Origin: an uncultured Fidelibacterota bacterium
GTDB taxonomy: Bacteria; Fidelibacterota; Marinisomatia; Marinisomatales; UBA1611
Reading direction: 5' to 3'
Length of the DNA: 34,122 nucleotides
Assembly: GCA_913040915.1 (NCBI GenBank)
Contig: CAJWHW010000024.1
Location: 1 to 34,122 of the forward strand
This document shows positions 22,703-34,122 of this stretch, piece by piece. Numbering within the stretch: the first letter of the stretch is position 1; the number at the start of each line of letters is the position of its first letter. The notes beneath the pieces are model-generated. The model was not told the origin of the DNA and did not search any database. It worked only from the letters and a program-made list of their open reading frames with translations. The translations under genes were made by a program, and so were the position numbers.

Positions 22703-25700
22703 ATGAAGAAAATCTTGCAAATACCAACACCTAATCCTGAACAAGCATCAGCCATAAACCACCCTCCTGCACCTTTAATGATCCTAGCCGGTGCAGGAAC
22801 TGGAAAGACATTTACCTTATTACATAGAATTAAACATCTCATTATGTCTGATCAAGTGAAGCCTGAACACGTATTGTTACTAACCTTTACAGAAAAGGCT
22901 ACTGCTGAAGCAAAAGAGTCAATAAGTAAAATGCTAGGCGAAAATGCGAACGATATTTTCACAGGTACTTTCCACAGCTTTTGTCATTCTATCATGCGTC
23001 GTTTTGGGCCAGAAGACAAATTGAGTGATGTCTTATGGCAGGAAAGTGATATTTTATATTTTTTGATAAATCATTTTGGCGAAATGGATTTTATTCAGTC
23101 TAGAGTATTTGCAGATAATCCTATTAGAGCAATCCGGGAATCGTTTATACCTTTTTTCAATAGGGTTAGCGATGAACTTCTTACCCCGGAAGAATTGATT
23201 ATCAAAATCAAGAAAATTGATAATTCACAAAATTGGTTTTTAAAAAATTTTCCCGGTATTCATGACAAGAATACAGATTTTGAAGATGTCGAATTTCAGC
23301 TTCGAGATCTTGTCCAGGCCTATGTATTTTTCCAAAATGCAAAAGCAAATAACAATGTAATAGATTTCGGGGATATGATCCTGGGCTGTTACAATATTCT
23401 TAAAAATAATCAATCTGCCTTAAAGCAGATCAGAAGAGAATACAGGCACATCTTTATTGATGAATACCAGGACAATAACTATGCTCTGAATAAGATTGTG
23501 AATTTCATTATAGAAAAAAAACCCAGTATTACAGTTGTAGGAGATGAAGATCAATGTATTTATTCATTCCGCGGAGCAAATTATTATAACATTTCTGATT
23601 TCAGAAAACGGTATGAATCTCATCCAAATTATGTAGAAATACCACTAGTTGAAAATCGTCGCTCTACTCAGGAAATTCTTGACCTAGCCAATGCATCCAT
23701 CAAACTAAATCCGGATCGAACACCTAAAGTCTTAACATGCCTGCCAGAAAATGCGGAAACGGGTCCAAAACCCAGATGGATCCAAGCAAATAAGACAGAG
23801 ACGTTGGATGCATTACCAACATTGATTCAGTCCTTGGTCAAAGAAGGACAAGCACTCTATGGCGATATTGTTGTATTATGCCGCGGCTGGGGTAATGTAA
23901 ATGAAGCAGCCAATACAATGGAGAAAGCTGCTATACCGGTGGACATTCATATTGAAAAACTTTTCGATGTTCCTATTGTGAAAGATGTATTGGCCTGGGG
24001 TCATTTGATCTCTCAGAATGAGTTTGCGGATATTGCACTCTATCGAATTTTGCGCGAGCGAGTTGGAGAATCCTGGGCAGGCGATTATTTCCAAAAAATG
24101 GAGAATAAGTCTATTCAAGAAAAACTTGATGAATTAAACAAGATGAGGAATGATACTAACGAAATAGATATATTGATGAATTCTATTACTGCTCTTCATG
24201 AAGCTATGGTTAAAAAACTAAAGGCTGATGAAATGGTCTGGCAAATACTTACAATAATAAAAGATTCGTTTTTAATTAAATCAATTCGCAACGATTACCG
24301 CTATAATCATCGACTGAATCTTGCGAATGCAGGTGAAATAATGAATCTGGCAGAACAATTCGTAAATAAGTCCCCTGAAGCAAATTTTAAGAATTGGCTT
24401 GAATTCATGCAAGTAATGTCAATGTCAACTAATCAAATTGCAGCGCAGCCAGAAATTGAAAATGGAAATCTTGCAGTTCAAGTAATGACAATTCACCAGA
24501 GTAAAGGACTTCAGTTCCCTGTGGTCATTATGCCATTTTTATATAGTGGCAGTTTCCCATCTAGTCTTAAAAAACATGCTATCATTGACCGATTACCTAT
24601 ATCGTGGATGGCATGGGAGCAAGGTGCTGACACTGATTTTCGTGAATTGCACAATCGAGAAGAACGCCGTGTCTTCTACGTAGGGGTTACCCGCGCAAAA
24701 AAACAACTATATTTATTTGGACCAACTTCAAGGCAATCCCTTTTTATAAAAGAATTAGAAAACATTGACCCTAAACCCATGGAGATAATTACCATGAATA
24801 CAACCAAAATTCCCACAATCAAAATGAGTAAAGAACGCCAAAATTTATTGGTAAAACTCAACAGAGAAATCGCTTCAAATCAATTAGGAAATGCCCGGGA
24901 AATTTTAGATCAAATGATGCAGGATAAGGATGATGATTTATGTGAAGGTGACCCCACTCCTTTAACAAATTCAACTCTCACCTTATCATCGACCAAAATT
25001 GAAACCTACAATTCATGTCCATTAAAATATAGATTAAAATATATAGATAAAGTTCCAGAACGGAAAACTCGAGCTACTGGTGAATTCGGATCAATTATGC
25101 ATAGTATTTTAGAAGAATTCCACGGTTTAGAAGCAAATAAGCAAACCGAGAAAACATTATTAGATCTTTTAGAAAAATATTGGCGTGAAGATTCATTTGA
25201 ATATCGTCAACGAGGCGATGAATTCCGTAAACAAGGTGAAGAATTATTATCAGATTATTTTCTTTTTTTTCAGAATAATCCAACCAATGTAATTGGTCGA
25301 GAGAAGAGTTTTACATATATGATGGAAGATATAAATGTGAAAATATCCGGAAAAATCGACCGTATTGATGATCATGGAGATTCTTTAGGAATTGTAGATT
25401 ATAAAACTAGTCGAAAAAAGCAAAAAGTAATTAAGAATATCCAGATGGCATTGTACACTGAAGCGCTGCTCCATGGTGCAGTTGAAGGTATTAGTGGAAA
25501 ACCCGGTGATGCCAGTCTACACTTTTTACGTTTTGGAGATGATCCCATCGCATCTCACAGGTTTACAGATGAAGAATTGGAAGAATACCGAGATACGATC
25601 AAGGGTGTTGCATCAGGTATTCGATCAGGATCATTTGAAACTAATAAGGATGACTATAACTGTCAATATTGTGATTATAAAGAATTTCTCTGCCCTGCAT

Positions 25701-25711
25701 GGGAAGAATAA
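22703..25711 (+). CDS. UvrD/PcrA-family SF1A helicase fused to a C-terminal PD-(D/E)xK nuclease with a four-Cys Fe-S staple (AdnAB/AddB-like)
   Basis: Helicase motifs AGAGTGKT, TFTEKA, TFHSFC, DEYQD, VGDEDQCIYSFRGA, TIHQSKGLQF and EERRVFYVGVTRAK. Nuclease motifs CPLKY, GKIDRID, DYKT, QMALY and CQYC...LCP. Confidence 0.93.
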   Translation: MKKILQIPTPNPEQASAINHPPAPLMILAGAGTGKTFTLLHRIKHLIMSDQVKPEHVLLLTFTEKATAEAKESISKMLGENANDIFTGTFHSFCHSIMRRFGPEDKLSDVLWQESDILYFLINHFGEMDFIQSRVFADNPIRAIRESFIPFFNRVSDELLTPEELIIKIKKIDNSQNWFLKNFPGIHDKNTDFEDVEFQLRDLVQAYVFFQNAKANNNVIDFGDMILGCYNILKNNQSALKQIRREYRHIFIDEYQDNNYALNKIVNFIIEKKPSITVVGDEDQCIYSFRGANYYNISDFRKRYESHPNYVEIPLVENRRSTQEILDLANASIKLNPDRTPKVLTCLPENAETGPKPRWIQANKTETLDALPTLIQSLVKEGQALYGDIVVLCRGWGNVNEAANTMEKAAIPVDIHIEKLFDVPIVKDVLAWGHLISQNEFADIALYRILRERVGESWAGDYFQKMENKSIQEKLDELNKMRNDTNEIDILMNSITALHEAMVKKLKADEMVWQILTIIKDSFLIKSIRNDYRYNHRLNLANAGEIMNLAEQFVNKSPEANFKNWLEFMQVMSMSTNQIAAQPEIENGNLAVQVMTIHQSKGLQFPVVIMPFLYSGSFPSSLKKHAIIDRLPISWMAWEQGADTDFRELHNREERRVFYVGVTRAKKQLYLFGPTSRQSLFIKELENIDPKPMEIITMNTTKIPTIKMSKERQNLLVKLNREIASNQLGNAREILDQMMQDKDDDLCEGDPTPLTNSTLTLSSTKIETYNSCPLKYRLKYIDKVPERKTRATGEFGSIMHSILEEFHGLEANKQTEKTLLDLLEKYWREDSFEYRQRGDEFRKQGEELLSDYFLFFQNNPTNVIGREKSFTYMMEDINVKISGKIDRIDDHGDSLGIVDYKTSRKKQKVIKNIQMALYTEALLHGAVEGISGKPGDASLHFLRFGDDPIASHRFTDEELEEYRDTIKGVASGIRSGSFETNKDDYNCQYCDYKEFLCPAWEE

Positions 25712-25735
25712 ATCTGCATTCTTTTGTTGTTTTAC

Positions 25736-26155
25736 CTAAGGTGTTTTGATAATCTGATATTCTAACCTGCCTGTAAAATTATCACCTAAAAGAGAAATTT
25801 TTCTAGGAGAGCCTATACCTGAAATAGAGTTTGTGCTTGTCCATACGATATTACTCAAAAGATAGGGCTGAAATATTGTATCACCGGAATCATTCATCAT
25901 TAACAATAATGTAGAATCAGAATTACTGATTTTCACATCAGAAAGGATAAGCGTTGTTAAAATAGAGTCCGTTGTGTCTGTTGCTAAGGATAACTGCCAT
26001 TCATGTTCTTCTGAAAAATCATCTCCATTCACAGACAATGAAAAATAATCTATATTGTTTACCACAGCCGGAATATTCTCTAATAATCCATCTTTATAAT
26101 CTGGTGGTGTAACACATCCAGTAAACAAAAGCAAATAAAGTGTGAGTTTTTTCAT
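25736..26155 (-). CDS. Hypothetical lipoprotein
   Basis: MKKLTLYLLLFTGC lipobox. Overlaps the rmuC stop by 4 nt. Confidence 0.8.
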   Translation of the reverse strand: MKKLTLYLLLFTGCVTPPDYKDGLLENIPAVVNNIDYFSLSVNGDDFSEEHEWQLSLATDTTDSILTTLILSDVKISNSDSTLLLMMNDSGDTIFQPYLLSNIVWTSTNSISGIGSPRKISLLGDNFTGRLEYQIIKTP

Positions 26156-27249
26156 GGCTCGATACTTTTTACTTCTTTAGTCCCTAATTCTAATTCTTCA
26201 ATTTTTTCCATTGGTTTTTCAAGAGCCCTACGCCTTGTCCCGCTTAATTCTTCATAATGATTTCCAAGAGAATTTAATGTTTTTCCCATTGCATCAATTT
26301 TAACAATAAAGTTATCCCATTGTTTCCGAAATATGCCTACCAACTCCTGCATTTCACCTGCTTTCTTCTCCATAGCAAAATTGGATACAGCCTGGCGAAT
26401 CAAAGAAAGGATTGCATATAATGTAATAGGTGAACATAACAAAATTTTCTGCTTCAGTGAAAAATCAATTAATTCATGATCTTCTTGGTTTAAAAATGAG
26501 TATATACTTTCATTAGGGATGAATAGCAGGACATAATCAACGGTACCTCCTTTAGGATCAATATAACCACGTTTTGATACTTCCTTGATACGGTCTCTTA
26601 CATCAGATAAAAATTGTTTTTTTTCAGCATCCCGTTCAGAATCTGTTTCAGCAGTTACATATTTTTCATAATGTGCTAAAGGAAATTTCACATCCATATT
26701 AATCGATTTATCATCAGGTAGGTAAAAAGTGAAGTCCGGCCTGTTACTTCCACCAGAAATCTGTTCCTGTTGAGTATAATTCAACCCTTCTACCAGTCCA
26801 ATAAAGTCTAAAATATCTTTTACCATCTTTTCACCCCATTGGCCACGAGCCTGAGAACTGGATAATATCTGTCGCAACTTGTTGGTAGTATTTGTTAATT
26901 CGCCCACACTTGTTTTGGATTCTTCCATTTGACTTTTAAGGGCAACAGTATTTTTTGACAGGTCCTTAAGATTATCCTTCATCTCTTTTAATGCAGAATC
27001 TATCAATTCCTTTTTGGAGTCAAGTTGTGAACCTGAGTTTTCAATTAATTTTGAAAACTCTGTAGAAGCTAGATCTAGGAATTGTTTTTGATTTTGGAGG
27101 AGTGCTTCATTAGATAAATCACCAAAAGATGATTTTAATTCATCCTGACTGTGCTGAATTGAATCTATTTCCTTTTGACGAACAAACCATACTAAACCAC
27201 CACCCAGTACAAAGCCTAGAATAAATAATATAATAACAGTAGAATCCAT
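26152..27249 (-). CDS. rmuC: DNA recombination protein RmuC
   Basis: N-terminal TM helix, coiled coil, RGQWGE, RPDF, DVKFP, LFIPNES, SPITL. Confidence 0.93.
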   Translation of the reverse strand: MDSTVIILFILGFVLGGGLVWFVRQKEIDSIQHSQDELKSSFGDLSNEALLQNQKQFLDLASTEFSKLIENSGSQLDSKKELIDSALKEMKDNLKDLSKNTVALKSQMEESKTSVGELTNTTNKLRQILSSSQARGQWGEKMVKDILDFIGLVEGLNYTQQEQISGGSNRPDFTFYLPDDKSINMDVKFPLAHYEKYVTAETDSERDAEKKQFLSDVRDRIKEVSKRGYIDPKGGTVDYVLLFIPNESIYSFLNQEDHELIDFSLKQKILLCSPITLYAILSLIRQAVSNFAMEKKAGEMQELVGIFRKQWDNFIVKIDAMGKTLNSLGNHYEELSGTRRRALEKPMEKIEELELGTKEVKSIEP

Positions 27250-27252
27250 TTA

Positions 27253-28575
27253 TTAAAGTGTTAGTGCAAAGTCATCCACTAAAATTCCAGGGCAAGTGGT
27301 TGCACCAAGAGATCTACCACCATAGGTTCCTGTTTCCGGATTGATGCTTGCCTTATCTTCCACATCAATGAGATTCTCACCAAAAAAATTGTAAAAAGAA
27401 TCATCAAAGCGCATGGTTTCAATTGGGGCTACTATTTCTCCACCTTCAACCCAGAAACACGCATAACGTGTTAGACCGGTAATGCGCCCACCGGCATTGT
27501 CACTCCAATTCAAATAATGGATATTGGATAAGTATAATCCCTTATCAATTGCGCTGGTAACATCCTTTTGATTTAACAAACCTGGAGACATTTTTGGAGA
27601 TCTCATAAACTCACCACTTTCTGCAAAGTTTGATTCTACATCGTATTCTTTGGCAGACCTGCTGCTTACCAACGTATTTCTTAATTCACCATCCTTAATT
27701 AATATCAGCTGTTCAGAAGAAATTTCTCCATTGGAATTGAATTTTGGACAAAAACCTGGTGTAAAATCTTCTGCCACAGAAAATTTAGGCGATAAGCGTA
27801 CATCATCATGGCGCATACGACCAAATCCACTACATCCTTGTCTTAAAGATGCTTCAGATATACCGTTCCAACTGAACATCCCAAGAAAATCTGCTACTGC
27901 AGCTGATTCAAACCAGGTACGATATTCCCCAGTCTCAATCTTTACGGGCTTCCTTTCCATAAGAGACAATTTTTCCCTCGATCTCCTAACATAGGATTCA
28001 TAGTCATGCTGATTCCAGTCTGAACCTGCAAAAGATCCTTTAACCATTTGATGTTCAGGCGTGACCAATGAATAATCCAAGCTGTAAGATTCAGTCTCAA
28101 ACCAATGTTTCTGCCCTAAGTTATTCGCATTTCCACGAAACATTCTTCCGTTGGCAAGAATGCCAACAAAATCAACGCCATCCACAGCAGGTAAAATAGC
28201 ATCAACAGCATTTTCAAAAGGCAATCCATTAGCTGACTTAACTTCATGACTTGAACCAGCATTTTCTGGCAAAACGACAAATGGGTCTTCTGGAATTTCC
28301 TTCGCTTCCATACGCATCCGTGAAATTTCTACTTTCCCCCGTTCTATATCTGTATCAAAATTCCCAGAAACAGTAAATCCACCATGAACCGTCCGGTTAT
28401 TCACAATGAATTTTAGTTCCATATCTGCATCATCTATTAAACCAGTTTGTCGAACGGTTGCATTATTAAAACGGATAAATTGACTATTTTCACCTGAGAA
28501 TGATAAAATCAGGCTTTCTTCATTTTTTAGTTCTATGAACAATGACTCGCTTAGTGTATTAAAAATATTTTCCAC
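27253..28575 (-). CDS. TldE/PmbA-family protein, non-catalytic partner
   Basis: RFNNA.VRQ, GLY...HYLNWSD...ITGLTRYACFWVE.GEI, no HExxH. Coupled to tldD, GTG start. Confidence 0.88.
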   Translation of the reverse strand: MENIFNTLSESLFIELKNEESLILSFSGENSQFIRFNNATVRQTGLIDDADMELKFIVNNRTVHGGFTVSGNFDTDIERGKVEISRMRMEAKEIPEDPFVVLPENAGSSHEVKSANGLPFENAVDAILPAVDGVDFVGILANGRMFRGNANNLGQKHWFETESYSLDYSLVTPEHQMVKGSFAGSDWNQHDYESYVRRSREKLSLMERKPVKIETGEYRTWFESAAVADFLGMFSWNGISEASLRQGCSGFGRMRHDDVRLSPKFSVAEDFTPGFCPKFNSNGEISSEQLILIKDGELRNTLVSSRSAKEYDVESNFAESGEFMRSPKMSPGLLNQKDVTSAIDKGLYLSNIHYLNWSDNAGGRITGLTRYACFWVEGGEIVAPIETMRFDDSFYNFFGENLIDVEDKASINPETGTYGGRSLGATTCPGILVDDFALTL

Positions 28576-30017
28576 TATACACCTCCAAAAACCTGAATGT
28601 TTTCAAATAAGCATGTTGGAGAAGCATGCCCCACACGAATCACCTGATTCGGCTCACCTTTCCCGCAATTTGGCGTGCCATAAATACCAAATGTTTCTTC
28701 GCTTCCAACACCTTTGAGACTATTCCAAAATGGTGTCGAAATTCCACGATAATTTGAATTTTTAACAACCTTAGTCAATTCCCCATTTTTGATTAGTCGC
28801 CCATATTCACATCCAAATTGAAATTTATTGCGATAATCATCAATGGACCATGATTTATTTGATTCCATATAAACGCCTGATTCAACCTGACCAATCAAAT
28901 CTTCAAAAGTTGAATCACCCGGTTCCAGATTTATATTTGCCATTCGGTCAATCGGTGCACGATTCCATCCACTAGATCGAAAATTTGCAACACCGTCGAG
29001 TCCTGAACGGATTTGACTTTCTTTTCCTCCCAAACCACGAAGGAGTAAACCTTCTTTAATAAGGTACTCTTTAGTTGCTTTGAGTCCACCATCATCATAT
29101 GCATAGGAAGCAAATTCAGATTCTAGCGTTGGGTCAAATGTAATATTCATGAGTTTTGATCCATATTGAAGCGAACCAAAATCTTCTAATTTCACAAAAC
29201 TCCAACCTGCATAATTTCTTTCATCTCCTAGTATTCTATCTACTTCCAGTGCATGGCCAATACTTTCATGAATCTGCAGCATCATCTGATCAGGAGCAAT
29301 TACAAGGTCCATTTCACCAGTGGGGCAATCTTCCGCTTTTAATAATTCAATTGCCTGTTCTCCAATTCGATTTGCATTAGCGAATATTTCAAATTTATCA
29401 AAATATTCCATACCCATTTGACGACACGTACCGCGCATACCACCAAAAGTTCTTGTTTGCTGGTTTGTACCATCAGCTGCGGTGGCACTCAAATCGAATT
29501 CCAGCATCAAAAAATCTTGATGAATGTCACTACCGTTTGAGCTAAGAAATTTGAAAGATGTTTCGATGACCTGACATAATGATGAAGCACTCACAATTTT
29601 ATCAGAAACTTTTAAATGATTGTACGCTTCTAGCAGAATCTCATTCAGCTTTCCTGCAGATAAACTTTCTCGATTTTTTGTAAAAGGCGATGAATAGGTT
29701 CCTTTATGTGATGGCCGCGCAGATTCATCAAATTGATAGGTAGCATGCTGAGAAGCAATTTTTGCCTGTTGGAATGCTTTTTTGGCGGCATTTGCTATAC
29801 CTTCAGGTGTCATGTTAGGTGTACCAAAATACCCAAATTGACCATCAACCAATACTTCCACCATTATACCGTGGGTTGCAGATCGACCATTTGCCACAGG
29901 CACACCATCCCTAATCATTCTAGGCGTGTGGGCTTCATACACTTCACGAAGGCCAACCCATTGAGCAGGAACATCCACTGCACTCATTAGGTGGTTTAAA
30001 TTAATATCTAACTTCAT
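28575..30017 (-). CDS. tldD: TldD-family zinc metalloprotease
   Basis: HESIGH zinc motif, DRILGDERNYAG, PIDRMANINL, CGKGEPNQ. Confidence 0.92.
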   Translation of the reverse strand: MKLDINLNHLMSAVDVPAQWVGLREVYEAHTPRMIRDGVPVANGRSATHGIMVEVLVDGQFGYFGTPNMTPEGIANAAKKAFQQAKIASQHATYQFDESARPSHKGTYSSPFTKNRESLSAGKLNEILLEAYNHLKVSDKIVSASSLCQVIETSFKFLSSNGSDIHQDFLMLEFDLSATAADGTNQQTRTFGGMRGTCRQMGMEYFDKFEIFANANRIGEQAIELLKAEDCPTGEMDLVIAPDQMMLQIHESIGHALEVDRILGDERNYAGWSFVKLEDFGSLQYGSKLMNITFDPTLESEFASYAYDDGGLKATKEYLIKEGLLLRGLGGKESQIRSGLDGVANFRSSGWNRAPIDRMANINLEPGDSTFEDLIGQVESGVYMESNKSWSIDDYRNKFQFGCEYGRLIKNGELTKVVKNSNYRGISTPFWNSLKGVGSEETFGIYGTPNCGKGEPNQVIRVGHASPTCLFENIQVFGGV

Positions 30018-30451: not shown

Positions 30452-30889
30452 ATGACATTAATTAAATGGACACCTAGACCAGCTTCAATCTTTGATGGTA
30501 TGGATAAAATGATTAGTAATGTATTTGATAATGACTGGAATTTCCCAGTCACATCAAACATGAATTGGTCACCATCTATTGATGTAAAAGAATCAAATGA
30601 TTCATTTACTTTAACTGCCGATATACCGGGCCTAACAAAAAAGGATGTAAAAGTGAAAATCACAGATAATATCCTGACAATTTCCGGTAATCGAGCAGTT
30701 GACAATAAAAAATCAGTGAGCTATCATTACAGAGAAAGACATTTTGGGACGTTTAAACGATCGTTTAATTTACCAGAAACGGTAAAAGAAGAAGATATTA
30801 CAGCAAATTTTAAAAATGGAATTTTGACTATCGAATTTCCAAAAAATGAAGTGGCTCTTCCAAAAGAAAGAGAAATCAAAATTAGCTAA
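30452..30889 (+). CDS. Small heat shock protein, Hsp20/alpha-crystallin family
   Basis: PSIDVKE, ADIPGL.K.DV, LTISG.R, RERHFGTFKRSFNLP, A.FKNGILTI..PK. SD AAGGAG. Confidence 0.97.
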   Translation: MTLIKWTPRPASIFDGMDKMISNVFDNDWNFPVTSNMNWSPSIDVKESNDSFTLTADIPGLTKKDVKVKITDNILTISGNRAVDNKKSVSYHYRERHFGTFKRSFNLPETVKEEDITANFKNGILTIEFPKNEVALPKEREIKIS

Positions 30890-30944: not shown

Positions 30945-31430
30945 CTAAAATAGTTTTTTAAATCCGATTAATATACTAACAACGGAATCATGATTAAATT
31001 GTGCATTTTTATGAATGGAAATATTTCGATGATATACGGTACAGCCCATATATTCTAACTGGTGTCGAAAAGCAGAAAGAAAGGCATAGGCTGAGCTTCC
31101 ACTGTGAGTGGCAATCAAAGCTTTTTTATCTAAGAAAGCTTGTCGCCATTGCTTAGTAGAAACTGTTATCCATGTAATGGTATTTGTAAGGATAGGTGGA
31201 ATTCCAGCATTATACTCCGGTGCACAAAAAATAAATCCATCAGCAGATTCAAATTTTTGCACTAACTCATCTAATAACTTTTTATCGGCCACTTCTCCAT
31301 CAGGAATAAACAAAGGCAGTGTATAATCTTCTAAGGATATCAGCTCATGGTCAACATTCAGCATTATGCTTATTTTTTGCCCAAGGCTATAATTATTCCC
31401 TTTAGAAGATGACACAATTAAAATTTTCAT
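30945..31430 (-). CDS. NAD(P)H-dependent FMN reductase (flavodoxin-like, SsuE/ChrR family)
   Basis: ADGFIFCAPEYNAGIPPILTN.I.W motif and AF.DK.ALIA.HSG. Confidence 0.9.
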   Translation of the reverse strand: MKILIVSSSKGNNYSLGQKISIMLNVDHELISLEDYTLPLFIPDGEVADKKLLDELVQKFESADGFIFCAPEYNAGIPPILTNTITWITVSTKQWRQAFLDKKALIATHSGSSAYAFLSAFRHQLEYMGCTVYHRNISIHKNAQFNHDSVVSILIGFKKLF

Positions 31431-32158
31431 TAAACCACTACTCCTCCATCGACATTTAAAACAGCTCCAGAAATATAACTGGCTTCATCACTAGCTAAAA
31501 ATGTGTAAGCATTCGCCACATCTTCCGGTTTTCCCCATCGTTTGAGAGGTACCTTTTCTTCCATCATATTAATTATTTTTTCCGGTATTCCCACTATCAT
31601 ATCTGTTTGTATAAAACCAGGTGCTATAGCATTTACCCGAATTCCATCTTTTCCCAACTCCCTGGCCCAGACTTTTGTCATGCCTACAACACCAGTTTTG
31701 CTGGCAATATAGTTTGTTTGACCAAAATTACCATTATGTGCTACAACGGAAGATGCATTAAGAATTACACCACTACCCTGATCTTTCATCATCTCGGCAG
31801 CTGCTTTTCCACAAAAATATACCCCGCGGAGGTTAACATTAATTACAGTATCAAATTGTTCAGTATTCATTTTTCTCAGTGTATTGTCCAGAAGTACACC
31901 TGCATTATTTACCAAAATATCCAATCTTCTGAATTCTTTTTTTATATATTCAAATAAATAAGAGACGCTCTTTTCATTACTAATGTCAGTTTTTACAAAA
32001 TGTCCATTAACTGCTTTAGCTGTCTCTTCTCCTGTTTTTTTATCAAATTCTGCAATGATAACCGTTGCACCTTCTTCAGAAAATTGGTGAGCAGTGGCTT
32101 TCCCAATACCACGTCCACCTCCAGTAATAATTGCAATTTTATTTTCTAGAAGTTTCAA
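31430..32158 (-). CDS. FabG-like short-chain dehydrogenase (3-oxoacyl-ACP/acetoacetyl-CoA reductase family)
   Basis: TGGGRGIG, LVNNAG, NFGQTNYIASK (YxxxK), VNAIAPGFIQTDM. Confidence 0.9.
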   Translation of the reverse strand: MKLLENKIAIITGGGRGIGKATAHQFSEEGATVIIAEFDKKTGEETAKAVNGHFVKTDISNEKSVSYLFEYIKKEFRRLDILVNNAGVLLDNTLRKMNTEQFDTVINVNLRGVYFCGKAAAEMMKDQGSGVILNASSVVAHNGNFGQTNYIASKTGVVGMTKVWARELGKDGIRVNAIAPGFIQTDMIVGIPEKIINMMEEKVPLKRWGKPEDVANAYTFLASDEASYISGAVLNVDGGVVV

Positions 32159-32162
32159 TTTA

Positions 32163-33650
32163 TTAAAAATCTCCTTCGTTATAGACTATATTTAATTTTT
32201 TACATTCTTCAATCAAGTTGCCCCTCAACTTTCTGGGTCCGCTAAAAAATAATTTTGAATCTACATTTTCACCTACGGAGCAAATATTTTTCAATTCATC
32301 TTTCCAATTTGGAATTCCAAAACTCGAATTTACCCAAAGATTATCAACTAACTTTACATCTGTTTCCTTTTTCAATATATCAGTGGAAATATAGATCATT
32401 CTTTCTTTCATTTCTTCGGGGTTTTTATCTACAAAAAAAATGTGATACCGAAAAAAAGAATCATCATTTTTAAAATTTATCTCATCCAATAATTTCGTAA
32501 ACCATTCAAAATAATGCTCATCATTATTAAGCCAGTAAAGATCTATTCGTTTCAAGGATAATTGATCTTTATCTTCTTTTGATTTTAAAGCAATGTCTTG
32601 TAGTATTGGAGCTATTCTGGAGATGCCATGACCCGCACCTACCAAAATTGCATGCTCCGTATTCATAATATTATTACTTGACGAGCCGTAAGGGCCATCA
32701 ATTCTTATGGACCAATTTATATCTTCTCTATTTTGAAGACCTTCTAGTATTTCACGATACAATTTCCTTGTCCATTTATTATTTGATTTTATATGAAGAG
32801 TAAGATCTCCTGAATTTGTATAATGAATAATATTGAAAGGATACCATTCCATTCTGGAAATCTCCTGACAATTAACATATAAATAATCTCCGGGGTTAAA
32901 AATAAACCCATCCGGTCTAGAAATTGTAAGTTCTAAAATTTTTGATGGTAGAAGATGAATTGCCTTCAAATCAACAAACTCTCTATTCTTTTTTCTATTG
33001 ATAAGGACATTATAAAGAAAAATCAGCCTTGGAATTAATAGCCATTGTAAAATACCGATATCTTGTACTTGAATTTGATTCTGAATTAAGGGTTTACTAT
33101 CATCACGTATATCTTGTTTGGCTTTATCATAACGGTCAGATACGAGCCAACTTACGGGATTAACTGCAAAACCATTCAAAAAATCAGGAAAAGCATCGGC
33201 AACATCTAAGAATTCATTGAAATCAATGGTTCCACTTTTATCCTTGTCAGCTCGTTTAAAAAACTCATCCACTAACAGGTCAAGTTGAAATTCATCATAA
33301 TCAAGATTATTTTCTAAAAAACTTTGTTCTATTAGTATTTTTAGCTCAGGACGATCTATAAAACCACTGTCATCCAAATCATGAAGATTAAATGCAAATT
33401 TTATCTTATCCTGATTTGTTCCACTGATGATCGTCTCAATAGTTGCCATGAATTCTTCAAAGTCTATCGAACCATTATTATCCCTGTCAAAAATATCGAA
33501 TAAACGATTAGAAATACCTTCATTGGAAATTTCTAATCCTTTGCGAAATTCGTTTCTGTCAATAAGTTGGTCATCACCCGCAATTTCTTGAAATTTATTG
33601 CGGAGATCTACAAGAAACGGACCCACTAACTTTTTAGATGTATTTATCAA
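32163..33650 (-). CDS. NOX5-like protein: four EF-hands plus FAD/NAD(P)H-binding dehydrogenase domain, lacking the ferric-reductase transmembrane domain
   Basis: EF loops IAGDDQLIDRNEF, DRDNNGSIDFEE, DLDDSGFIDRPE and DKDKSGTIDFNE. Then LLPSK, PGDYLY, EWYPF, IDGPYG, EHAILVGAGHG, FEWF, G.PNW, FFSGP and a terminal F. Confidence 0.88.
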   Translation of the reverse strand: MINTSKKLVGPFLVDLRNKFQEIAGDDQLIDRNEFRKGLEISNEGISNRLFDIFDRDNNGSIDFEEFMATIETIISGTNQDKIKFAFNLHDLDDSGFIDRPELKILIEQSFLENNLDYDEFQLDLLVDEFFKRADKDKSGTIDFNEFLDVADAFPDFLNGFAVNPVSWLVSDRYDKAKQDIRDDSKPLIQNQIQVQDIGILQWLLIPRLIFLYNVLINRKKNREFVDLKAIHLLPSKILELTISRPDGFIFNPGDYLYVNCQEISRMEWYPFNIIHYTNSGDLTLHIKSNNKWTRKLYREILEGLQNREDINWSIRIDGPYGSSSNNIMNTEHAILVGAGHGISRIAPILQDIALKSKEDKDQLSLKRIDLYWLNNDEHYFEWFTKLLDEINFKNDDSFFRYHIFFVDKNPEEMKERMIYISTDILKKETDVKLVDNLWVNSSFGIPNWKDELKNICSVGENVDSKLFFSGPRKLRGNLIEECKKLNIVYNEGDF

Positions 33651-33742: not shown

Positions 33743-34122
33743 ATGATATTTAATTCAATATTAGACACTATTGGCACCACACCAGTTATTCGCCTGAATA
33801 AAATCGGGAGCGAACTGGACTGCGATCTATTTGTTAAATGTGAATATTTCAATCCTGGTGGGTCGGTGAAAGATCGGATTGGATGGAGAATGGTTGAAGA
33901 TGCAGAAAAAAGTGGTCGGATTAAGCCTGGTGATACACTCATTGAGCCAACTTCCGGTAATACTGGACAAGGAATGGCTTTAGCATCAGCTGTAAAGGGA
34001 TATCGTTGTATCATCACCATGCCTGAAAAAATGAGCAAGGAAAAACAGATTTCTTTGGAAGCATTAGGTGCAGAAATTATAAGGACCCCAACAGAAGCGG
34101 CCTGGGATGACCCGAAGAGTCA
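33743..34122 (+). CDS. Cystathionine beta-synthase / PLP-dependent cysteine synthase family, 5' part running off the window (missing from the ORF track)
   Basis: Manual translation gives [18 protein letters not shown]...[16 protein letters not shown]...[10 protein letters not shown]...[16 protein letters not shown]...[22 protein letters not shown] lies upstream. Confidence 0.92.

Follow-up and report, generated by a model that had tools for sequence, protein, structure and literature searches.

What defines the NADPH oxidases (NOX) is that a di-haem membrane domain is joined to a dehydrogenase domain. In human NOX5 and in the NOX5 of Cylindrospermum (csNOX5), Ca2+ is described as folding EF-hands 3-4, which then attach to the dehydrogenase domain at a regulatory region (residues 611-634 in csNOX5), with csNOX5 D611 and D631 essential for Ca2+ activation (PMC7317449). 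The isolated dehydrogenase (DH) domain of SpNOX is reported to be an NAD(P)H:flavin reductase that needs added flavin, shows no flavin selectivity and reduces O2 and, directly, cytochrome c; its contacts with the flavin are mostly to the isoalloxazine, which is sandwiched by the FAD motif's Pro-Phe and the C-terminal Phe, with the ADP part directed towards the missing transmembrane (TM) domain (PMC11031084). Here we analysed a stretch of 34 122 nucleotides (nt) from an uncultured Fidelibacterota bacterium (contig CAJWHW010000024.1, positions 1 to 34,122; hereafter the window), in which a minus-strand gene at 32163..33650 encodes a protein of 495 amino acids (aa) that joins NOX5-like EF-hands to a NOX-type dehydrogenase domain and contains no ferric-reductase domain. 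This protein and its relatives, hereafter the short form, constitute a clade that departs from the definition of NOX.

The short form resembles NOX5 (human NOX5, csNOX5 and 662-664-aa proteins of Marinimicrobia) in a four-EF-hand N-terminal domain that is homologous throughout and 46-49% identical to that of the Marinimicrobia proteins, as well as in TM6, the hinge, the FAD_binding_8/NAD_binding_6 fold, the terminal Phe and a counterpart of the EF-binding region. Unlike NOX5, it lacks TM1-TM5, both haems and the four haem-ligating His, its FAD and NADPH motifs are replaced and its dehydrogenase domain is unusually diverged (27-33% identity). Since the window protein has no haems, its sequence implies that it cannot pass electrons across the membrane to O2 by the haem route and that it is not an NADPH oxidase. 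With the laboratory-made isolated domains of SpNOX and csNOX5 it shares a NOX-type dehydrogenase domain without a TM domain, whereas the short form is natural, conserved family-wide and equipped with an EF-hand regulator, a TM6 remnant and altered cofactor motifs. The NAD(P)H:flavin reductases Fre and LuxG have the same two-domain FNR fold, take flavin as a substrate and gave the best NCBIfam matches of the dehydrogenase part, but Fre has neither EF-hands nor a TM6 stub, and the scores were far under the family cut-offs (NF005963, 29.6 bits against 230; NF052252, 25.6 against 340); the window protein is therefore not a member, and we use the Fre/LuxG likeness as a working analogy only. On balance we lean towards reading the short form as a functional branch of bacterial NOX5 that one Marinimicrobia family has inherited vertically and that would serve as a flavin reductase or diaphorase, dependent on NAD(P)H and switched by Ca2+.

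A preliminary description made from the sequence alone had called this architecture apparently undescribed, and our searches agree: we found no description in the full-text literature of a protein with EF-hands and a NOX-type dehydrogenase domain but no ferric-reductase domain, no literature joining Marinimicrobia with 'NADPH oxidase', and none among the papers listed that joins the phylum names with EF-hand, ferric reductase or NOX5. The survey of Zhang et al. 2013 (PMC3591440) was anchored on the ferric-reductase domain, and, supplements aside, we met no mention of a TM-less form in it. The bacterial NOX screen of Hajjar et al. 2017 (PMC5676040; supplements likewise aside) required the haem His and canonical FAD and NADPH motifs, and the short-form clade is therefore invisible to screens with such filters.

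Architecture, deletion and distribution of the short form

The open reading frame (ORF) at 32163..33650 is uninterrupted over 495 codons and ends 4 nt before the next gene, as originally noted. Its TTG start codon is backed by conservation among 79 homologues, in which N3 and S5 are invariant and K7 and L8 near-invariant. The first 12 residues as a whole (33615..33650, minus strand; MINxSKKLxGPF) are strongly conserved across the short-form clade, with K7, L8, G10 and F12 each present in at least 90% of members, and have no counterpart in full-length NOX5. Pfam placed EF-hand families at aa 27-150, FAD_binding_8 at 227-325 (2e-20) and NAD_binding_6 at 334-483 (2.4e-20) and gave no match to Ferric_reduct (PF01794) on the window protein at E <= 1, while the same model picks up the TM domain of the 663-aa relative P0297 (1.7e-11). 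The predicted arrangement of EF-hands fused to a NOX dehydrogenase domain without Ferric_reduct was thus found: the N-terminal regulatory domain of the protein, with four EF-hands of which three have canonical loops, is a homologue of the NOX5 one, its C-terminal domain is an FNR-like dehydrogenase of the NOX type (FAD_binding_8 plus NAD_binding_6), and in place of a ferric-reductase domain of about six transmembrane helices the window protein shows one hydrophobic window only. The features of the gene, all on the minus strand, are as follows.

32163..33650, minus strand: EF-hand + TM6 stub + FNR-type dehydrogenase gene, 495 aa, a haem-less NOX5 offshoot (Pfam, phmmer)
33141..33620, minus strand: EF-hand domain, aa 11-170, matching human NOX5 14-168 (Pfam, phmmer; AlphaFold2 pLDDT ~80)
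33549..33584, minus strand: EF1 loop region, aa 23-34, non-canonical, aligned to the first EF-hand region of human NOX5
33453..33488, minus strand: EF2 Ca2+ loop, aa 55-66, DRDNNGSIDFEE, canonical loop pattern
33345..33380, minus strand: EF3 Ca2+ loop, aa 91-102, DLDDSGFIDRPE, canonical loop pattern
33213..33248, minus strand: EF4 Ca2+ loop, aa 135-146, DKDKSGTIDFNE, canonical loop pattern
33057..33140, minus strand: variable linker replacing TM1-TM5, aa 171-198, ending in an invariant QVQD motif (clade entropy, AlphaFold2)
32982..33056, minus strand: TM6-derived helix, aa 199-218, and basic cluster NRKKNR, aa 218-223 (aligned to TM6 of full-length bacterial NOX5)
32676..32972, minus strand: FAD-binding subdomain, aa 227-325, with YPFNI replacing the NOX motif HPFT (Pfam; P271 and F272 invariant)
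32202..32651, minus strand: NAD(P)H-binding subdomain, aa 334-483, with GHGISR replacing GIGVTP and FFSGP replacing FFCGP (Pfam, Foldseek)
32340..32441, minus strand: counterpart of the NOX5 regulatory EF-binding region, aa 404-437, from a gap-free alignment to the csNOX5 dehydrogenase domain (location as given in PMC7317449)

Human NOX5 was the top match among all PDB chains (phmmer, E 1e-62), followed by the dehydrogenase domain of Cylindrospermum NOX5 (~5e-49), and it was also ranked first by Foldseek with the AlphaFold2 (AF2) model as query (1.6e-25); as expected of a NOX5 homologue, the best matches were these proteins and not generic FNR enzymes. Three co-linear blocks were aligned with human NOX5 (query/human residues 17-171/14-168, 201-300/374-475 and 307-488/511-712), and the motifs from which co-linearity at both ends had been proposed (IAGeD, LLPSK, PGDYLY, IDGPYG, EHA.L.GAG, FEWF and G.P.W) were visible in the alignment. 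The terminal Phe, likewise listed at the outset, is common to bacterial full-length NOX5; in the window protein it is F495, just past the NAD(P)H-binding interval. The AF2 model was built from a 114-row alignment (mean pLDDT 74, pTM 0.49), and its dehydrogenase domain (pLDDT ~80) superposed on csNOX5 DH chains (8cap) with a TM-score of 0.88-0.89 and an rmsd of 2.5-2.6 A (Foldseek).

Among the related genomes, three (G218, G209 and G242) encode full-length proteins of 662-664 aa with EF-hands, Ferric_reduct, HPFT, GIGVTP and a terminal F, and a fourth, G047, has a similar full-length NOX5 gene truncated by a contig end. The complete genes are located as follows.

L025 1438..3429, minus strand: complete NOX5-type gene of G218
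L022 1495..3483, minus strand: complete NOX5-type gene of G209
L023 412..2403, plus strand: complete NOX5-type gene of G242

These Marinimicrobia proteins read FFCGH where other NOX5 read FFCGP, and in G218 and G209 a predicted ORF of 450+ aa follows the full-length gene.

To map the deletion, 15 short-form members were aligned with the three 662-664-aa Marinimicrobia proteins and three other bacterial NOX5-type proteins. The short form tracks the full-length proteins to '...VNPVSWL' at the end of the EF domain and picks up again at '...QWLLIPRL...', which corresponds to TM6, and TM1-TM5 including both bis-His pairs (the haem ligands in TM3 and TM5) are deleted. In terms of human NOX5, ~205 residues (169-373) holding TM1-TM5 and all four haem His have no counterpart in the window protein, and a linker of about 28-29 aa stands in their place. 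The claim that the membrane domain is missing therefore stands for these ~205 residues but not for its last helix, since the TM6 equivalent (aa 199-218) is retained. The linker was also said to contain no His, and there is none in aa 151-230 of the window protein.

A word-indexed protein search returned 160 clusters, and among the 120 listed, all 120 were without PF01794 and were 422-507 aa long. An exhaustive search of 1.84 billion representatives gave two 50%-identity clusters with the full architecture (P0014 and P0123), the next representative matches being 630-690-aa proteins with EF-hands, TM and dehydrogenase domains, fragments, and giant EF-repeat proteins. Five further candidates for TM-less forms (P0197, P0202, P0225, P0243 and P0268) were rejected, as each is N-terminally cut and retains part of Ferric_reduct. 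The giant proteins (P0122, P0125-P0127, P0129, P0130 and P0133) measure 2200-3070 aa, contain 9-15 EF-hand-like stretches apiece and were among the best matches of the EF domain. Source names and the ESM Atlas assign the short form to Candidatus Marinimicrobia (Fidelibacterota), and its members are labelled in the source databases as hypothetical protein, EF-hand protein or ferredoxin-NADP reductase. Scanning 301 genomes of the phylum, we obtained matches in 23: besides the window's own genome, 21 of 25 in its family and one of two in a second family, whereas the remaining 30 families gave none. The short form is present in 20 of these 23 genomes, in one of which a contig end cuts it, and three have the full-length form only.

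Decay of a full NOX5 gene into a pseudogene, or an assembly artefact, is suggested by the missing domain itself and by nothing else, and we regard it as refuted. The frame is intact, identical boundaries recur in 20 genomes and >100 clusters (the complete copies of the phylum scan being 43-76% identical), and 51 columns are invariant among 79 short-form members. Moreover, G218 holds both the short form and a complete 663-aa NOX5 at separate loci, and the two are therefore paralogues in that genome. The deletion is shared by related genomes rather than unique to the window's assembly, and the gene does not look like debris, as the preliminary description had judged from its frame.

Trees were computed as a quick version with 57 rows and a careful version with 35 rows x 481 columns, from which 22 rows were left out (DUOX-like proteins, other short and long NOX-like proteins, the identical P0297, and further animal and bacterial full-length proteins). 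The short-form clade was monophyletic with a support of 100/100 for 15 sampled members, on a long stem of 0.85-1.04 substitutions per site. The phylogeny proposed at the outset thus recovered the clade but not its sister group, which may be Marinimicrobia full-length NOX5, cyanobacterial NOX5 or all of them (support of 78 in one tree and 16/12 in the other). The sole pointer to the Marinimicrobia full-length proteins as nearest kin is the BLAST identity of the EF domain, which in the window protein is closest to theirs at 46-49%.

The EF-hand and dehydrogenase domains

Of the four EF-hand loops originally described, EF2-EF4 have the canonical pattern; EF1, which aligns with the region of the first EF-hand in human NOX5, is non-canonical. 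Conservation of the Ca2+ ligands within the short-form clade is 99-100%: D55 and E66 at 100% and D57 at 99% in EF2, D91, G96 and E102 at 100% each in EF3, and D135 and E146 at 100% each in EF4. The EF domain retains 17 of the 18 columns conserved in full-length NOX5 relatives (79 short-form members against 35 full-length proteins, the sets also used for the motif comparison below), and its column entropy in the clade is 1.09.

In an ESMFold2 complex test, the EF domain (1-170) paired with residues 186-495 reached a median ipSAE of 0.49, the best control being 0.27, and across three runs at least 88% of the contacts agreed, at a partner pLDDT of at least 71. In calibration the pass mark was reached in 116 of 157 solved complexes and two of 215 mismatched pairs; passes at scores <=0.60 comprised 18 of the 157 solved complexes plus both of the passing mismatches. 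The test thus lends weak support to the EF domain docking on the dehydrogenase domain, and the pass may stem from likeness to solved NOX5 and DUOX structures. In the counterpart of the EF-binding region, the first essential acid (csNOX5 D611) is kept as E, as mapped by offset within the alignment.

The dehydrogenase part has the two-subdomain fold of the FNR superfamily, with P271, F272 and G342 invariant and G340 at 97%, and is predicted to bind both cofactors. The invariant pocket positions are P271, F272, D318-G319-P320-G322, G342, W373, W383, P447, W449, F468 and G471; a C-terminal Phe is present in 80% of the clade and is also found in bacterial full-length NOX5. Because the short form keeps the residues that sandwich the flavin in SpNOX, namely Pro-Phe and the C-terminal Phe, we read it as a likely flavin reductase or diaphorase. 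In the mechanism that we envisage, EF2-EF4 would take up Ca2+ and the Ca2+-loaded EF domain would dock on the dehydrogenase domain as in NOX5. Electrons delivered by NAD(P)H would later exit straight from the flavin, which may be either a diffusible substrate (free FMN, FAD or riboflavin) or the donor to a soluble or membrane-surface acceptor. Among the functional options first raised, a Ca2+-gated flavoprotein is accordingly worded here as the best reading, and a 'regulatory subunit' is a possible rival.

Several observations weigh against a Ca2+-switched reductase. Using the FAD motif H[PSA]F[TS][LIMV] and the NADPH motif in the form applied by Hajjar et al. (PMC5676040), we found the former in 5 of 79 short forms and the latter in none, compared with 35 of 35 full-length proteins for both; the window protein has YPFNI and GHGISR instead. 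Within the clade, the His of HPFT is changed to Tyr in 80% and its Thr to Asn in 77%, the SSAP stretch of full-length proteins is gone, the Pro of GIGVTP is Arg or Lys in 100%, the Cys of CGP is Ser in 85%, and the Glu three residues before the C-terminus is Gly, Lys or Arg. Mapped by motif, these changes (H270Y, T273N, P345R/K, C470S and E493G/K/R) sit at loss-of-function positions of NOX2: among the variants of X91+ chronic granulomatous disease, H338R is reported with residual activity and T341K, P415H/L, C537R and E568K with zero activity where recorded, P415H disrupting the NADPH-binding consensus (PMC9674757). Of 73 dehydrogenase columns conserved in the full-length set, 32 are kept, 12 are now fixed for a different residue and 29 have relaxed. 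All 15 members compared are 36-49% identical to the G218 full-length NOX5 in the EF domain but 27-33% in the dehydrogenase domain, while the dehydrogenase domain of G218 NOX5 is 32-50% identical to that of other full-length NOX5-type proteins. The column of the second essential Asp (csNOX5 D631) is T, K or D in the clade, with a D at +3 in 59% (offset mapping). Finally, AF2 gives no confident placement of the domains or of the stub helix, which leaves their arrangement unsettled.

Part of this evidence favours the main rival, a pseudoenzyme in which a catalytically dead dehydrogenase domain serves as the scaffold of a Ca2+ sensor that would signal via the EF-hands and the TM6-derived helix to some other target. 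Constraint in the clade is inverted, the EF-hands (1.09) and the stub helix (1.06) being more conserved than the FAD (1.65) and NAD (1.80) subdomains. In 15 of 15 members it is the EF domain that is closer to Marinimicrobia full-length NOX5, whereas in 30 of 34 other full-length proteins the dehydrogenase domain equals or exceeds the EF domain in similarity. None of the 79 members retains the NADPH motif: its Pro is always Arg or Lys, and in NOX2 a His or Leu in place of this Pro leaves no activity. A terminal aromatic residue is missing in about 15%. Against a dead domain, the dehydrogenase invariants line the flavin and nicotinamide pockets (P271, F272, DGPYG, GxG, FEWF, F468 and G471), and the replacement residues are themselves fixed (Y 80%, N 77%, R/K 100% and S 85%), which resembles changed specificity rather than decay. 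Fre-type flavin reductases, too, are not known to carry the Pro of the NADPH motif. We hold the pseudoenzyme to be unlikely. For the flavin reductase, the fixed replacements (Arg/Lys, Tyr, Asn and Ser) may mark a shift in the nucleotide or flavin that it prefers, now that FAD binding has to do without the TM domain.

The TM6-derived helix and the search for a haem partner

The conserved TM6-derived helix, the clade-wide replacement of the FAD and NADPH signatures and the full-length NOX5 of relatives were not mentioned in the preliminary description. The linker before the helix has the highest entropy of the clade segments (2.34), with an AF2 pLDDT <50 over 171-202, and Q194 and V195 of its terminal motif are shared by all 79 members. 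The helix itself has an entropy of 1.06, as low as that of the EF-hands and under those of both dehydrogenase subdomains. All 79 members have P207, N214 and an R or K at 208, and 76 have Y213; the basic cluster that follows the helix has a median net charge of +4 in the clade. In the window protein the helix is the sole hydrophobic window, with a Kyte-Doolittle hydropathy over 19 residues (KD-19) of 1.69; the clade has a median of 1.50, with 20 of its 79 members at or above the usual threshold of 1.6. The AF2 pLDDT of the stub (201-221) is only 55-57. Since the conservation is sequence-specific (P207, R/K208 and N214), it fits an interface, whether intramolecular, with a partner or with the membrane surface, rather than a plain lipid anchor.

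A single-pass, bitopic membrane protein, whose EF domain would lie outside the cytoplasm and respond to external Ca2+ and whose dehydrogenase domain would face the cytoplasm, would match the hydropathy of the window protein and the positive-inside pattern of charges, with QVQD before the helix and NRKKNR after it. Such a topology would, however, require export of an N-terminal domain of ~198 aa that has no signal peptide, and it would put an invariant basic residue and an Asn in the middle of a membrane helix that reaches KD 1.6 in only 20 of 79 members. The placement of the EF and dehydrogenase domains in separate compartments also conflicts with the NOX5 mechanism as described in PMC7317449 and with the weak complex support given above, and we consider this topology very improbable.

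The protein had also been suggested to be one half of a split NOX. A Ferric_reduct profile search of the window's own genome (85% complete, 71 contigs) gave no match, and that genome showed no stand-alone ferric-reductase TM gene, no full NOX5 and no MsrQ-like ferric-reductase-domain protein, NAD_binding_6 matching the gene studied here alone. Across 41 genomes of the family, Ferric_reduct was above the cut-off in the three full-length NOX5 genes only, and at E <= 0.001 it was absent in 17 of the 18 short-form carriers searched, the exception being G218. No membrane-protein gene was a conserved neighbour across 19 loci. The split-NOX proposal was thus not borne out.

A two-component system of another kind would have the TM6-derived helix dock the flavin face on a membrane redox protein that is not a ferric reductase, or on the quinone pool, while Ca2+-gated input is kept. 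The stub helix and its flanks are among the best-conserved segments, and the invariant polar residues Q194, P207, R/K208 and N214 speak for a specific interface and not for a lipid anchor; the helix also has a basic cluster after it. The flavin faces the TM domain in NOX structures and the FAD of SpNOX DH points to the missing TM domain; in addition, Escherichia coli Fre reduces MsrQ, which consists of a ferric-reductase domain only, according to a title cited in the same source (PMC11031084). On the other side stand the absence of a ferric-reductase domain in 17 of 18 carriers, the lack of a conserved membrane-protein neighbour at the 19 loci and of any candidate partner, and a stub hydrophobicity under the usual TM threshold in 59 of 79 members; we find this arrangement doubtful.

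The TM6 remnant and its basic tail may also have been re-used as a specific docking element that sets the exposed flavin face of a Ca2+-gated dehydrogenase on the inner membrane surface or on a partner other than a ferric reductase, a possibility that we put forward tentatively and think unlikely. If true, SAR406/Marinimicrobia would possess a route, controlled by Ca2+, for feeding electrons to quinones, iron chelates or free flavins, a task in physiology that no known NOX-family protein has, and the short form would provide a natural soluble EF-hand/dehydrogenase module for studies of NOX5-type Ca2+ activation.

Genomic context and meaning of the short form

In the window, the EF-hand/dehydrogenase (EF-DH) gene lies in a slot between a divergent gene for a pyridoxal-phosphate (PLP) enzyme and a convergent HSP20 gene, with the following neighbours.

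33743..34120, plus strand: cystathionine-beta-synthase/cysteine-synthase-like PLP enzyme gene, divergent, cut by the window end, slot-defining
31430..32158, minus strand: FabG-like SDR gene, facultative downstream neighbour, with a TTG start 4 nt past the EF-DH stop
30945..31430, minus strand: FMN_red (flavodoxin-like) gene, facultative neighbour
30452..30889, plus strand: convergent HSP20 gene, far boundary of the slot

The PLP-enzyme gene, a full-length relative of which scores 519 bits in TIGR01137 (cut-off 510), adjoins EF-DH divergently in 18 of 19 loci, and HSP20 bounds the opposite side in 15 of 19. The EF-DH stop codon TAA is followed after 4 nt by the TTG start at 32158, and a GGAG sits 10-12 nt 5' of that start; owing to this motif and the short gap, the EF-DH and SDR genes are probably translationally coupled in the window. 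SDR and FMN_red were considered as operon partners and rejected, as SDR adjoins EF-DH in seven of 19 loci and FMN_red in five of 19. SDR occupies the same slot without EF-DH in G047, G209, G241 and G259 (a 92-aa fragment in G241), and FMN_red is present without EF-DH in G209, G241 and G259. The two genes are facultative neighbours and not obligate partners.

The slot was found in three states: EF-DH with SDR and FMN_red, EF-DH alone, and SDR alone or with FMN_red. The 92-aa SDR frame of G241 may be broken. G259 is without EF-DH though its genus otherwise carries it, and has 133 bp between the PLP-enzyme gene and SDR. Elsewhere in the window, 22703..30017 encodes an AddA-like UvrD helicase/PD-(D/E)XK nuclease (1002 aa, plus strand), an unannotated 139-aa ORF, RmuC and a TldD/PmbA metallopeptidase pair, and many relatives keep the genes running from RmuC to TldD/PmbA in synteny.

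Scans for regulatory signals were uninformative, with 16 promoter-like sites against 17.3 expected and one terminator-like site against 2.1 expected. In four marine metatranscriptome libraries, a single contig of 152 nt fell on the EF-DH gene (run X16, 33468-33619, no differences), which we count neither way for expression. Contigs of 140-406 nt, 99-100% identical, fell mainly on FMN_red (30945..31430, minus strand) and were nearly absent from the two genes upstream of it; such contigs cannot rank genes.

The short-form clade shows that the Ca2+-sensor/dehydrogenase pair of NOX5 can last long without haems in an abundant group of marine bacteria, and that new residues have become fixed in its dehydrogenase domain at sites critical for disease in human NOX2. 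An active short form would be a naturally occurring dehydrogenase of the NOX type under Ca2+ control, probably soluble or peripheral. It would allow the activation of hydride transfer by EF-hands to be studied with no membrane protein involved, and it would be a candidate for the Ca2+-controlled reduction of flavin or iron in the ocean. An inactive short form would exemplify a pseudoenzyme derived from NOX. The clade is of interest for the evolution of NOX and for Ca2+ signalling in bacteria.

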